Origin: Escherichia coli
Lineage (GTDB): Bacteria > Pseudomonadota > Gammaproteobacteria > Enterobacterales > Enterobacteriaceae
Length of the DNA stretch: 64,000 nt
Assembly (NCBI RefSeq): GCF_030384885.1
Contig: NZ_CP128613.1
Direction: 5' to 3' (one strand)
The notes under the pieces were generated by a model. It did not search any database. It was not told where the DNA came from and saw only the letters and a program-made list of their open reading frames with translations. Within the stretch, counting starts at the first letter, position 1; every line of letters begins with the position of its first letter. The position numbers and the translations under genes are program-made. Below are positions 23,755-26,809 of this stretch, one piece after another.

Positions 23755-24132
23755 TTAATCAAGCAGGCCACGAGATGTCTTACTTGCAGTCTGACGAAAA
23801 TCATAACGTTCCGCAATATCACCTTTAAACCAGATATCCAGTGATTTAATGTGCGCCGTGTTGCTATTGGTCAACAGAGCAAGGCCCGGTATGTAGTTAG
23901 ATAGTTGGCTTTCTCCCGTCATACTTGAGTAGTTCCACATCTCCTGACCATCAGTCGTAGCGCGTGTTTGAGGCTCTCCAAAGGCAGCAAGAATTTCTTG
24001 TTGGGTAGTTTTTCCCTTGACGATTTTTAATTTAACCGTTTGATGATTTTCATCAGTTAGGGATTTATTACCATGAACGGTACAGCCACTAAGTGGTAAT
24101 ATGATAAAAATAGCAAGTAATAATTTTTTCAT
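23755..24132 (-). CDS. Putative lipoprotein
   Basis: Signal peptide with lipobox (LLAIFIILPLSGC). Confidence 0.5.
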   Translation of the reverse strand: MKKLLLAIFIILPLSGCTVHGNKSLTDENHQTVKLKIVKGKTTQQEILAAFGEPQTRATTDGQEMWNYSSMTGESQLSNYIPGLALLTNSNTAHIKSLDIWFKGDIAERYDFRQTASKTSRGLLD

Positions 24133-24163
24133 TTTGTTCCATAATTAGATGAAAGGTGAGACG

Positions 24164-24652
24164 TTAGAAAACATACTTTTTAAATACCAGCATCCATCGC
24201 TCACAAAGTTCGTGATTTGAAGTGCTTTTATTTTTCAAGGGAACATTAACTTTCCACATGGGATTTTTAATATCATCGGTTAAAATATTTAGACCAGACC
24301 GTTTGTTTGCTGAAAGTTGTTCTCTCCAGTTAGCAATGGCCGCATTATTCATACCTCGTAATGTTCCATTGCCGTAAAACTTACCACCTTCTGAAAGCGT
24401 ATAATTTATTTCTCGAATTTGATCAAAAGTATATGTGCTATCTTTATCTTTATTGAAAATACGGACAGTATGTTTTTGAGTATCAATGACAATACCTGTC
24501 TGTTGGCATTGATACGAAAGAATGTCGCCGTCCAGAACTTCCGTGAAGCTGTTGTAGTGCTTTTTCTTCTGTATATCTGCTGCGGTCATGATAATGACGA
24601 AGAGCACCACTAAAAATACGATACCTGTTGCTTCCACTTTTACTTCCTCCAT
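24164..24652 (-). CDS. Membrane-anchored hypothetical protein
   Basis: N-terminal TM helix (GIVFLVVLFVIIMTAA); co-oriented immediately upstream of the lipoprotein gene. Confidence 0.45.
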   Translation of the reverse strand: MEEVKVEATGIVFLVVLFVIIMTAADIQKKKHYNSFTEVLDGDILSYQCQQTGIVIDTQKHTVRIFNKDKDSTYTFDQIREINYTLSEGGKFYGNGTLRGMNNAAIANWREQLSANKRSGLNILTDDIKNPMWKVNVPLKNKSTSNHELCERWMLVFKKYVF

Positions 24653-24767
24653 GTAAATGAGTTAAAGAGACTGAACCCGCTCACAGAGCTTTGCTTCGTT
24701 TTATACGTCCTACAGCACCAAACTCATGGCGTCGGTCTCGGCGTTGCAAGGCTATCAGAACTTGAAA

Positions 24768-24910
24768 TCATGATCGATATAAAAGATCGATAATTGCTTA
24801 TTGATAGATTCTAACGATTAAACAGATGATATCGATCGGCAATTAATTGTTATTATCGATCGAATATCAACTTATGATAGCTGCAAGCTATCATGTGGTC
24901 GTTTTTGATC
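24768..24910. promoter_or_regulatory. GATC / ATCGATC palindrome cluster in divergent promoter region
   Basis: Five GATC sites in about 140 bp, four within ATCGATC contexts; adjacent 19 bp palindrome TGATAGCTGCAAGCTATCA (24875-24893). Confidence 0.5.
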
Positions 24911-25069
24911 GTTTTAAACGATATGACGAGACGCTAAAAGAATTGAATCCTATCAATTGGTTAAGCGGTGGTTTTGCCATGTGATATCAGCCGGATCCCG
25001 CAACAACTCAAGCCCTGACCGGATTAGGTCAAAAATTTAGGCACTTTGATTATCAGGATGGACAAGCAG

Positions 25070-25600
25070 ATGAAGAAGATTTTACTCGTTGTAGGCGCAA
25101 CTCTGGCACTGGCGGGATGTGGTGAGAAAGGTGATTTTGAGAAGGCGATCAATGCCAAGATAGGGCAGGACAAATATTGCTTCTCGCTGGATAACAATAA
25201 CACCAGCTTCCCCATCCGTCTTGCCAAGCCACGACTTGATTCGACTGGCACAGGGACGAATTCAGTGATCCTCGACGGTTTTATTGAGCAGGGCCTGATG
25301 GTTTTTGAACAGGGCTATGATTCGAACGTATTAGGGATAACAGAGGAAGGCAAAAAAGCCAAAGTCTGGAGCACAAGAGACGGTGCTTGTGTAGGTCGTC
25401 GTGCTGTTGATGAGATTAAGGAATGGACGGAGCCGGGAAACGGTAATCAGAAAGTAGTTCGCGTGACTTATACGTGGAAGTTGGTTGACGTTCCGGGCTG
25501 GATTGACAAAAAAGCCTTCGCCAGCGTTAAAGGAATGAATGAACCTGCTGATGGTGCAATGAATCTTGTTAAAACAAGTAATGGCTGGAAAGCTAACTAA
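25070..25600 (+). CDS. Putative lipoprotein
   Basis: Signal peptide plus lipobox (MKKILLVVGATLALAGC). Confidence 0.5.
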   Translation: MKKILLVVGATLALAGCGEKGDFEKAINAKIGQDKYCFSLDNNNTSFPIRLAKPRLDSTGTGTNSVILDGFIEQGLMVFEQGYDSNVLGITEEGKKAKVWSTRDGACVGRRAVDEIKEWTEPGNGNQKVVRVTYTWKLVDVPGWIDKKAFASVKGMNEPADGAMNLVKTSNGWKAN

Positions 25601-25695
25601 AAGGATGCTGGATCGTTAAATGCCCCTGCTACGCTGTGGAAAGTGACAGAAGGGGCATGAATTGTATTTCATTTAATGTAGTGAATGATATTTTA

Positions 25696-26268
25696 TTATA
25701 TCGATTTGTTAGATACTTTCATCAATTTCTCTTGAATTTTTCTTATTCTTTCAAGTTCTTCAACAATGGGATTTTTCTCGCCTTCACTTTGCATGAAAGG
25801 GCTTAAGTCTATATTGTTTTTTTCAACAACTTCTTTATTCATATAACTGTACGTTGCGGTTATTGTAAATTGTTGTGGTAACGGATTTTTCGATTCTCCA
25901 AAAATAACCCAACCTTGACCAAGGGCGAAGAATAACTCTTGATTGGGCGCTAAGCTATCAATAGTCGATGTAAAAATACTTGTTTCTTTTAGGTTTTTAG
26001 TTGGCTCATCGAACTGATAAAAATCCTTATCTAATTCTAATTTTACATTCAGGGCTGGTGTCTTACCGCTATTATAAATTTTCAGGTATAGGAATTGCGA
26101 GTGAGGTCTTACCATTGGCTGGATTATTATATAAGGACGAGACATTGCCTCGGTTTGCTCATTCATTATCTGAGCTGTTCGTTCGCTTATTCTCGACATC
26201 TTGTATGTCAAAAATGCATAAATTCCTGTAATGATAACAAGAATTGCTGTAAGTATTTCCATTGTCAT
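25696..26268 (-). CDS. Membrane-anchored hypothetical protein
   Basis: N-terminal TM helix (ILTAILVIITGIYAFLTY); 190 aa. Confidence 0.4.
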   Translation of the reverse strand: MTMEILTAILVIITGIYAFLTYKMSRISERTAQIMNEQTEAMSRPYIIIQPMVRPHSQFLYLKIYNSGKTPALNVKLELDKDFYQFDEPTKNLKETSIFTSTIDSLAPNQELFFALGQGWVIFGESKNPLPQQFTITATYSYMNKEVVEKNNIDLSPFMQSEGEKNPIVEELERIRKIQEKLMKVSNKSI

Positions 26269-26314
26269 GATTAACTCCTAAGTATAATGATTCATACCAG
26301 TAAGGTATAATATT

Positions 26315-26809
26315 TTAACTATTATTGCATTTTTTTCTGTTGAATAGTTGATTATATCCAAGTTCCATTTCTTCAATAAAATCTTCATTAAATGTTGGAA
26401 ATCCACACGCCAGTGGTTCTTTCCCTCGAATTTTGAATAAGTTATAAAGATAACTACTTTCTTTATATGCGACATGAATGGCAGGATATGGCCTATTTTT
26501 TATAATCTTATTGTTTAGTTCCTTATCATTGATAATGTTATATTGATCCCCCGTTATATCAACTACAATATTATCTATCTCAAGCCAGTAATGGGTTATT
26601 TGACTATTTTTTCCGGTAGTTGCGCTAACTCCTTTTAGCTCACATTCAGGCCATAGGGTCAGAAAATGGTAAGAAAGAAGCATTGAGGTAAGCTTACAAC
26701 TCATAACAGGAAAACAGTCTATAACAAGACTGGTGTTCTTTTTATCACAACTTTCAATTAATCTACGAAGCTTAACTGCTTCTTCTTTTATTTCGATAAT
26801 GGTTGGCAA
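26315..26809 (-). CDS. Hypothetical protein (downstream of relaxase gene)
   Basis: 164 aa ORF co-oriented with mobA. Confidence 0.4.
   Translation of the reverse strand: MPTIIEIKEEAVKLRRLIESCDKKNTSLVIDCFPVMSCKLTSMLLSYHFLTLWPECELKGVSATTGKNSQITHYWLEIDNIVVDITGDQYNIINDKELNNKIIKNRPYPAIHVAYKESSYLYNLFKIRGKEPLACGFPTFNEDFIEEMELGYNQLFNRKKCNNS

Follow-up and report, generated by a model that had tools for sequence, protein, structure and literature searches.

The window analysed here is a stretch of 64,000 nucleotides from Escherichia coli (contig NZ_CP128613.1 of assembly GCF_030384885.1), and the feature of interest is a block of five small genes between positions 23755 and 26809, bordered by the genes of a Thoeris defence system on one side and by the gene of a MobQ-family relaxase (mobQ) on the other (Table 1). 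The five encode a SEN1984-family lipoprotein, a DUF4755 protein, a SEN1982-family lipoprotein, a DUF8453 protein and a protein of 164 residues, referred to below as p164. A sequence-only reading of the window had placed them in a defence island and suggested that envelope proteins in such a setting may act in superinfection exclusion or abortive infection. We favour, with moderate confidence, the view that the block is the conserved middle of a mobilizable island at serU, of the Enterobacteriaceae-associated ROD21-like (EARL) kind, and that it comprises three independently inherited units lying between spots of cargo exchange. It would then be neither one system nor a unit of the neighbouring Thoeris or NACHT genes.

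All five open reading frames (ORFs) are present at the positions claimed for them. They are real genes, since comparison with orthologues 4–40% diverged from the window genes (loci L001, L004 and L013) revealed purifying selection throughout (ratio of nonsynonymous to synonymous rates, dN/dS, 0.04–0.53) and zero stop codons or disruptions. SEN1982 begins at ATG 25070, as in all 25 homologues, and not at TTG 25046; DUF8453 has AGGAG 8 nt before its ATG, and p164 has a TTG start with GGGAG upstream. The true start of DUF4755 is probably GTG 24637 (157 amino acids), because GGAGG lies 7 nt upstream and the Prokaryotic Genome Annotation Pipeline (PGAP) makes the identical call.

Two convergent units had been described, whereas we found three transcription units. 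Firstly, DUF4755 and SEN1984 form a two-gene operon on the minus strand, with DUF4755 first and 31 nt upstream of SEN1984; it ends at a hairpin shared with thsB, probably a bidirectional terminator and the left edge of the block. Secondly, SEN1982 stands on the plus strand, divergent from this operon and convergent with the third unit. In that unit mobQ, at the right-hand border of the block, leads a minus-strand operon running into p164 and DUF8453. This operon meets SEN1982 at a long hairpin, probably a terminator shared by SEN1982 and DUF8453, which a consensus terminator scan missed because its loop is too long. The proposal that a soluble protein of 164 residues is co-transcribed with the relaxase gene holds: p164 has no hydrophobic segment and follows mobQ after 78 nt, with no convincing terminator between them. 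The two predicted lipoproteins likewise possess canonical lipoboxes. Of the two proteins described as N-terminally anchored, DUF4755 and DUF8453 each have the single hydrophobic N-terminal helix expected, but their domains are probably cytoplasmic and not part of the envelope. The statement that none of the genes carries a recognisable motif was incorrect, as we found the DUF4755 domain (Pfam, 7.6e-14), a weak BamE domain and an invariant Cys-His-Asp set.

Table 1. Positions of the block genes, associated non-coding elements and other island features in the window.
Feature	Position	Strand or setting	Basis or remark
SEN1984-family lipoprotein, 125 aa	23755..24132	-	lipobox, PGAP name, phrog_3135
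DUF4755 protein, orthologue of ROD21 pseudogene SEN1983	24164..24652	-	Pfam DUF4755
Control block, 200 bp	24770..24970	+	alignment of 16 loci, about ten genera
GATC sites of control block	24785, 24834, 24858, 24907; less conserved one at 24772		
Box 1, GATAG-N7-CGATT	centre ~24811		
Box 2, TGATAG-N7-CTATCA	24875-24893		
Invariant 13-mer AAACGATATGACG	24916-24928		
AATTnAATnCTATCAATTGrTTAA	24941-24965		conserved
SEN1982-family lipoprotein, 176 aa	25070..25600	+	lipobox LAGC, homologue alignment
Long hairpin (ATGCCCCT ... AGGGGCAT)	25620..25660	between convergent SEN1982 and DUF8453	sequence reading
DUF8453 protein, 190 aa	25696..26268	-	PGAP name; last gene of mobQ operon
p164, 164 aa, predicted cytoplasmic	26315..26809	-	directly downstream of mobQ
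MobQ-family relaxase	26888..28369	-	NCBIfam MobQ 2.5e-74, Pfam MobA_MobL 2.6e-54
oriT-like region, ~140 nt	28395-28530	upstream of mobQ	near-invariant in 12 island copies
Hairpin GGCCACAATTATTTGTGGCC, GC-rich	23721..23740	between convergent thsB and SEN1984	terminator-like site in consensus scan and sequence reading
Thoeris genes	21608-23705		
tRNA-Ser(CGA) (serU)	11794-11883	one end of island	tRNA scan
Integrase, P4-type tyrosine recombinase, 405 aa	32897-34114	other end of island	98.5% identical to annotated E. coli E1 gene
PilS- and PilV-like ORFs	29713-31759		matched to annotated E. coli E1 genes
H-NS-like ORF	16894-17298		matched to annotated E. coli E1 gene
NACHT-domain protein, 616 aa	14832-16682	+	Pfam 3.8e-10
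CAP12/Pycsar-effector TIR protein, 276 aa	31967-32797	-	Pfam 2.3e-37

The island itself spans about 22 kb of low G+C content (GC 0.31–0.46), from the tRNA-Ser gene to the integrase gene, and is flanked in the chromosome by mtfA and tRNA-Asn on one side and by zinT, msrQP, hiuH and hprRS on the other. The five genes lie in a 3.2-kb stretch with 95.7% DNA identity to chromosomal islands of many E. coli strains, where PGAP names the products SEN1984 family lipoprotein, DUF4755, SEN1982 family or LptM family lipoprotein, DUF8453 domain-containing protein, hypothetical protein and MobQ family relaxase. The published gene table of ROD21, an excisable island of Salmonella Enteritidis, lists a MobA/MobL protein (SEN1980), a membrane protein (SEN1981A), a lipoprotein (SEN1982), an exported protein (SEN1983, a pseudogene) and then a further exported protein (SEN1984). 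It also equates c2401 of strain CFT073 with SEN1982, the E. coli serU island being CFT073 c2392–c2418. Orthologues of SEN1982, SEN1983 and SEN1984 stand in the ROD21 order in the window, as part of a common succession of MobQ relaxase, membrane protein, SEN1982, DUF4755/SEN1983 and SEN1984, and the companions are common as well: TraD-like, PilS/PilV, RepL-like, DUF4756 and DUF6387 proteins, H-NS paralogues and a P4-type integrase.

The EARL family has been defined by a set of modules and by insertion at Asn-tRNA genes (Pina-Iturbe 2018, PMC6035254). The window island contains its MobA/MobL relaxase, TraD-like, PilS/PilV and H-NS paralogue modules and is inserted beside a tRNA gene with a P4-type integrase at one end, but the tRNA concerned is tRNA-Ser, as in the E. 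coli serU island. In comparison with ROD21, the window copy has Thoeris (ThsA/ThsB) at the site of the S-adenosylmethionine (SAM) methyltransferase, an intact DUF4755 in place of a pseudogene, and p164 with DUF8453 where ROD21 carries SEN1981/SEN1981A. The genes and their arrangement are already catalogued (SEN1981A–SEN1984, c2401), and the window holds a version of this common island that carries Thoeris.

The same backbone also occurs inside a conjugative IncFIB/IncHI1B plasmid of Klebsiella pneumoniae, pINF177.2 (locus L045; CP110748.1, 124825-137020), with DUF6387, AlpA, H-NS, DUF4756, Rep, the non-coding block described below, the SEN1982 operon, MobA/MobL and TraD. Since up to 3–4 separate copies of block parts are found in some complete E. 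coli genomes, these genomes carry several related islands.

Among 5426 complete E. coli genomes, 553, or about one in ten, have at least part of the block. The DUF4755–SEN1984 pair is present in 393, the DUF8453–p164 pair in 78 and Thoeris of the window type in 48. The co-occurrence with Thoeris that might have been expected of a defence unit is not found, as the first pair is present in 393 genomes and Thoeris in 48. The cargo varies on both sides of the block. To the left of the core lie Thoeris in the window, DUF4238 in enteropathogenic E. coli (EPEC) E2348/69 and a SAM methyltransferase in ROD21; to the right of SEN1982 lie p164 and DUF8453 in the window and an AAA_15/AAA_21 ATPase with an HNH protein in E2348/69. 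Identity of the Thoeris genes to those of the 48 E. coli genomes is 99.6% (ThsA synonymous divergence, dS, 0.007), whereas that of the block with mobQ (23755-28369) is about 95% or less (dS 0.06–0.23), a disparity which indicates a recombination mosaic with recently exchanged cargo. The block is a fixed framework between two cargo spots and not itself cargo, and its nearness to defence genes is therefore uninformative on function. The right-hand spot of an Acinetobacter metagenome-assembled genome has, after p164, a second, different type of Thoeris.

These observations bear directly on the alternative in which the lipoproteins and membrane proteins work against phages as parts of a defence island; its support is indirect and specific to single genes, and we consider it possible but doubtful. 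In that account SEN1984 would block a receptor or the entry of DNA from the periplasm and DUF8453 would serve as a membrane effector. The position of the block between two spots of defence cargo is in its favour, but such adjacency is expected of any framework gene so placed, and the absence of an association with Thoeris counts against it. A search of PADLOC-DB 2.0 left four of the five proteins without a match, while for DUF4755 there was one weak match, to Cas6 (E 0.0038, 14.8 bits), that we take to be spurious; membership of the five genes in a defence system was rejected for want of a credible match. SEN1982, moreover, is a backbone gene with a virulence phenotype, and p164 is a predicted cytoplasmic enzyme associated with the relaxase gene. 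Similarity to envelope proteins of a housekeeping kind, which would have counted against the sequence-only reading, was not found either: matches in NCBIfam and Pfam were confined to the level of the signal peptide, and the block genes are island-borne. LptM_cons, TrsH, IglE, a type VI secretion immunity lipoprotein and an MliC-type lysozyme inhibitor were rejected as far below the NCBIfam and Pfam cut-offs.

The most constant member of the block is SEN1982. Across 18 species-representative loci it is convergent with a MobQ gene 1–7 kb away in 14, whatever the cargo, while the other four block genes are patchily distributed; SEN1982 belongs to the backbone of the island family. The closest homologue, from S. 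Enteritidis (P0001), is 95% identical. The protein begins with MKK and reaches its lipobox LAGC at Cys17, with Gly at +2 and a match to Pfam LPAM_1, and is probably located in the outer membrane, where the conservation of Cys36 and Cys106 (alignment numbering) suggests a periplasmic disulfide. A partial structural model resembles the cystatin/latexin and NTF2/VirB8-like folds. Half of the protein is unmodelled and sequence identity is 3–12%, and such folds are too widespread for a role as an inhibitor or in a secretion system to follow. We consider a published proposal of a PadR-like DNA-binding motif in SEN1982 implausible, because the gene product is a lipoprotein destined for export and the residues concerned (58–99) coincide with the part that AlphaFold could not model.

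A conserved non-coding block of 200 bp upstream of SEN1982 is the most informative new observation of this analysis. In the 16 loci aligned, four GATC sites are retained in 15–16, and two ATAG-N7-CTAT dyads are retained with spacers free to vary. Each dyad, 73 bp from the other, is flanked symmetrically by GATC sites at a distance of about 25 bp. The invariant 13-mer is unique within the window and found in 15 loci. Between genera the block is 69–74% identical, against only 33–38% for the following 100 bp, and the synonymous sites of SEN1982 are saturated (dS 1.58). A structured RNA or small ORF was rejected on the grounds that there is no Rfam match, no codon periodicity and no constancy of the dyad spacers. 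The block is always upstream of the SEN1982 operon and co-oriented with it. Where an additional gene (weakly tRNA_anti-like, probably an OB-fold lipoprotein) precedes SEN1982, the block precedes that gene, and because it shifts upstream in this manner it behaves as a control region of the operon.

In other islands (L045 6276-7694; L011, L015 and L016) the control block precedes a three-gene operon of a weakly tRNA_anti-like protein, perhaps of OB fold, a SEN1982 homologue and an ORF of 91 amino acids, of which the window retains SEN1982 alone.

The pattern of conservation suggests that the control block may be bound by a sequence-specific protein whose binding is sensitive to Dam methylation. 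Clustered, conserved GATC sites with a LysR/OxyR-type dyad are features of the known Dam switches (pap/Lrp, agn43/OxyR, gtr, opvAB/OxyR and std/HdfR), and here too the gene that follows encodes a surface-associated protein. The resemblance has limits, in that the control block has two isolated dyads 73 bp apart and not the four ATAG elements at 10-bp phasing of a full OxyR site. If such binding occurs, SEN1982 expression would depend on the methylation state, either as an on/off switch by phase variation or through expression upon hemimethylation after the island has been replicated or transferred.

The control block, with its recurring ATCGAT/GATCG motifs, its inverted repeats and its cluster of GATC sites, might instead be a site that acts in cis for the island (an origin of transfer or replication, or a partition site, for example) and not a promoter or operator. 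Similar repeats and GATC clusters occur in origins such as oriC and plasmid P1 oriR, and the island encodes a RepL-like protein. We nevertheless think this improbable. The block remains upstream of the SEN1982 operon in the same orientation even across an inserted gene, and a better candidate for oriT, a near-invariant 140 nt with a compensatory hairpin, lies directly upstream of mobQ; an oriT at the control block is for this reason judged unlikely.

SEN1984 is a predicted lipoprotein of the outer membrane, a prediction that follows from Thr at +2 of its lipobox; its N-terminus consists of MKK, a hydrophobic core and the lipobox LSGC with Cys17, and matches Pfam LPAM_1. The gene is under purifying selection in its own right (dN/dS 0.04–0.23). 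It matches the phage family phrog_3135 at 5.8e-32, and homologues 29–41% identical were found in seven phage genomes. The homologue of E. coli phage PhiR26_1 is directly 3' of the repressor gene cI and that of Salmonella phage S107 two ORFs past it, both co-oriented with cI; those of Klebsiella phage RAH1 and Alteromonas phage P24 are located amid tail genes, upstream of the tape-measure gene. In lambda, the region following cI holds the exclusion genes rexAB, and these locations, past cI in two lambdoid lineages and accessory amid tail genes in two others, speak for an anti-phage role. Unlike such prophage genes, the island SEN1984 is paired with DUF4755 and not with a repressor. Cor (of phi80 and N15) and Llp (of T5), also small lipoproteins, act by blocking a receptor in the outer membrane. 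The similarity of SEN1984 to both is confined to the signal peptide, however: the match to phrog_1119 (Cor, E 0.019) spans residues 1–38 only and that to PDB chain 8a60_B (Llp, E 0.086) residues 1–29 only. Receptor masking, or exclusion of phage or of redundant transfer, would be the most economical reading of the phage data, and a role in superinfection exclusion is plausible solely for SEN1984 and, weakly, for DUF8453.

A relationship of SEN1984 with BamE was also considered. Pfam BamE scores were 15.1 bits (E 0.02) for the window protein, 24.2 for the S107 homologue and 22.7 for that of RAH1, relative to a cut-off of 23.2, and a Phyre2 similarity to BamE has been published (PMC10655114). 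A profile of the SEN1984 family matched no BamE chain in the PDB, and PDB searches with SEN1984 (single sequence and profile), p164 and DUF8453 gave no meaningful matches. Like BamE/SmpA_OmlA (PF04355), SEN1984 is a small lipoprotein, with about 110 residues when mature, and its BamE-domain match is weak; it is island- or phage-borne, however, and not the housekeeping BamE, and binding to the BAM complex would be purely hypothetical.

Its partner DUF4755 scores 52.2 bits against PF15947 (E 7.6e-14, residues 43–158; gathering cut-off 27). The family is small, with 78 representatives at E<=1e-3, and the window copy is conserved (dN/dS 0.07–0.09). The N-terminal membrane helix has a mean hydropathy of 2.9, and some homologues (P0402 and P0411) have fused C-terminal zinc ribbons. 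Lys and Arg residues come after the N-terminal helix in both DUF4755 and DUF8453, and together with these zinc ribbons they suggest that the domains of both proteins probably face the cytoplasm and not the envelope. The phage RAH1 neighbour of the SEN1984 homologue was considered as a DUF4755 relative and rejected, being a DUF2335 protein with no similarity.

DUF8453 consists of an N-terminal membrane helix (mean hydropathy 2.4), a beta-rich domain and a C-terminal helix. Its 136 homologues, all of about 188 amino acids and at least 48% identical, are spread over several phyla, with sources including Enterobacterales, Vibrio, Halomonas, Psychrobacter, Rhodocyclaceae, Gallionellaceae and Blastocatellia, and dN/dS is 0.04. 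The membrane helix LTAILVxITxIYxYLT is nearly invariant from Enterobacterales to Acidobacteria, which is unusual for a simple anchor and suggests helix–helix contacts or a functional role in the membrane. Its neighbours in Vibrio, in Halomonas and in Rhodocyclaceae differ (integrase, Mrr, HicAB, YoeB/YefM and transposase), with many mobile-element genes among them. Neighbours in Halomonas, Pseudoalteromonas and elsewhere yielded no informative Pfam match and no conserved partner, and a 219-residue Vibrio neighbour was rejected as a p164 relative (hhalign probability 0.1%). DUF8453 is a widely transferred, independent single-pass membrane protein. The unusual conservation of its helix, its spread as a single gene near toxin–antitoxin, Mrr and integrase genes, and its match to phrog_9607 (1.2e-7) are the points at which an anti-phage function would find some agreement beyond SEN1984.

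The third unit is linked to mobilisation by its first gene. p164 usually follows a relaxase gene, and the order MobQ, p164, DUF8453, with convergent SEN1982 and divergent SEN1984, is found again in islands of Pluralibacter and further Enterobacterales, where MobQ is only 60% identical; the arrangement is old in one branch of the family. Cys38, His73, Asp84 and Asp88 of p164 do not vary among 26 sequences drawn from Enterobacterales, Aeromonas, Pseudoalteromonas and Acinetobacter, and the first three form a candidate catalytic triad. The predicted fold is transglutaminase- or papain-like, with the Cys at a helix N-terminus against a sheet bearing the His and Asp. No sequence-level membership could be assigned among enzymes of this fold (LapG/BTLCP, protein glutaminase, SseI, Cif and arylamine N-acetyltransferase); p164 differs from LapG in having no signal peptide and from the arylamine N-acetyltransferases in being much smaller. 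It has a single weak Pfam match, YunG, its profile found nothing in the PDB, and a viral structure library contained no match at E<=1e-3. A solitary homologue in Morganella morganii (L031-L033) sits between a type VI secretion hcp-vgrG-PAAR cluster and a Fic gene.

Upstream of mobQ, the oriT-like region contains an inverted repeat, ACACTGC-TAC-GCAGTGT, which four loci replace by another, still complementary pair; it looks like the hairpin and nick region of the island oriT and is offered as a candidate. Further upstream, the stretch 28700-28940 has a recurring GTGCAACAC motif and a pair of GC-rich hairpins, CCCGCCTTACGGCGGGA and GCCCTTACGGGC, which are conserved from one island copy to the next.

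The block genes might instead serve the mobilizable island as accessories of transfer. In that case SEN1982, perhaps together with SEN1984, would either act in surface or entry exclusion in the manner of TraT or TrbK or interact with the type IV secretion system of a helper plasmid or with a PilS/PilV pilus of the island, and p164 would process a transfer protein. The fixed position of SEN1982 beside MobQ across the family, that of p164 directly after MobA_MobL in several island lineages and the TraD-like, PilS and PilV genes on the island all agree with this account, as does the reported conjugative transfer of ROD21 (PMC3976249). The fold matches are weak and generic, however, and Pfam and NCBIfam scans revealed no sequence similarity to the TraT, TrbK and Eex families. 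Furthermore, phages, which do not conjugate, have homologues of SEN1984, and both p164 and DUF8453 are also met away from any relaxase. We consider this account unlikely.

Less probable still is the proposal, drawn from the ROD21 literature, that the genes encode host-interaction factors, with surface lipoproteins aiding systemic infection or colonisation. According to papers citing Silva 2012, SEN1982 is among the ROD21 genes whose transposon mutants are defective in colonising BALB/c mouse liver and spleen, and the family has been termed a pathogenicity island and carries the TIR proteins TlpA and TcpC. The phenotype, in the form in which these papers relay it, comes from an uncomplemented screen in which polar effects are possible. 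The same genes are present in Erwinia, Brenneria, Sodalis and Buttiauxella, plant-associated and environmental Enterobacterales and an insect endosymbiont, as well as in E. coli strains that are commensal or probiotic (M-17 and ATCC 25922 among them), and SEN1983 (DUF4755) is a pseudogene in S. Enteritidis itself. The anti-phage, transfer and colonisation accounts are not mutually exclusive.

Within the reading of the block as island framework, we judge it likeliest that both lipoproteins would work in the element's interest from the periplasmic side of the outer membrane. They could mask or alter an envelope component and so hinder an incoming phage or redundant DNA transfer, and effects on host colonisation would be a by-product. 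p164 would modify or cleave a protein during or after transfer of the island. The more specific joint claim, that the control block is a Dam-sensitive operator tying SEN1982 to island replication or transfer, or to phase variation, and that p164 is a relaxase-coupled enzyme needed for mobilisation or establishment, perhaps through the processing of a transfer protein or the inactivation of a factor of the recipient, strikes us as a speculative conjunction with rather poor prospects.

Several observations weigh against these proposals. An action at the envelope does not describe DUF8453 and DUF4755, which probably face the cytoplasm, and p164 is found without a relaxase in Morganella and in a Tn7-like element of Pseudoalteromonas. 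At the control block, the GATC density is unexceptional: 5 per 200 bp is the maximum of the window and other stretches reach 4, so that conservation, not density, carries the argument. The GATC sites are placed next to the ATAG-N7-CTAT boxes and not within them, a layout which differs from those of the agn43, gtr and opvAB switches (in agn43 and opvAB, GATC is inside the boxes). No gene for a LysR-type regulator was seen in the island. The RepL-like SEN1990 was rejected as regulator of the block, since its published deletion left ROD21 gene expression unchanged.

The presence of these genes in Salmonella ROD21, Klebsiella and other enterobacterial islands, as well as in E. coli, gives the result some practical reach. 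Recognising a framework between cargo spots may assist the mining of such islands for defence genes, as neighbourhood alone would mislabel the block genes as defence. The p164 fold assignment, the GATC/dyad control block and the cI-adjacent SEN1984-type lipoproteins of lambdoid phages are, to our knowledge, new. Should the control region prove to be an epigenetic or transfer-coupled switch, it would provide a handle on the timing of island gene expression; p164, if a relaxase-associated cysteine enzyme, would represent a new accessory function in MobQ mobilisation; and phage exclusion by SEN1984-type lipoproteins, if true, would amount to a widespread envelope-level immunity common to prophages and islands.

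Two further genes of the island may be mentioned. The NACHT-domain protein has no PADLOC match, and its gene is missing from the otherwise very similar island of E. coli E1. At the opposite end, the CAP12/Pycsar-effector TIR gene adjoins the integrase gene and represents cargo of a defence type.

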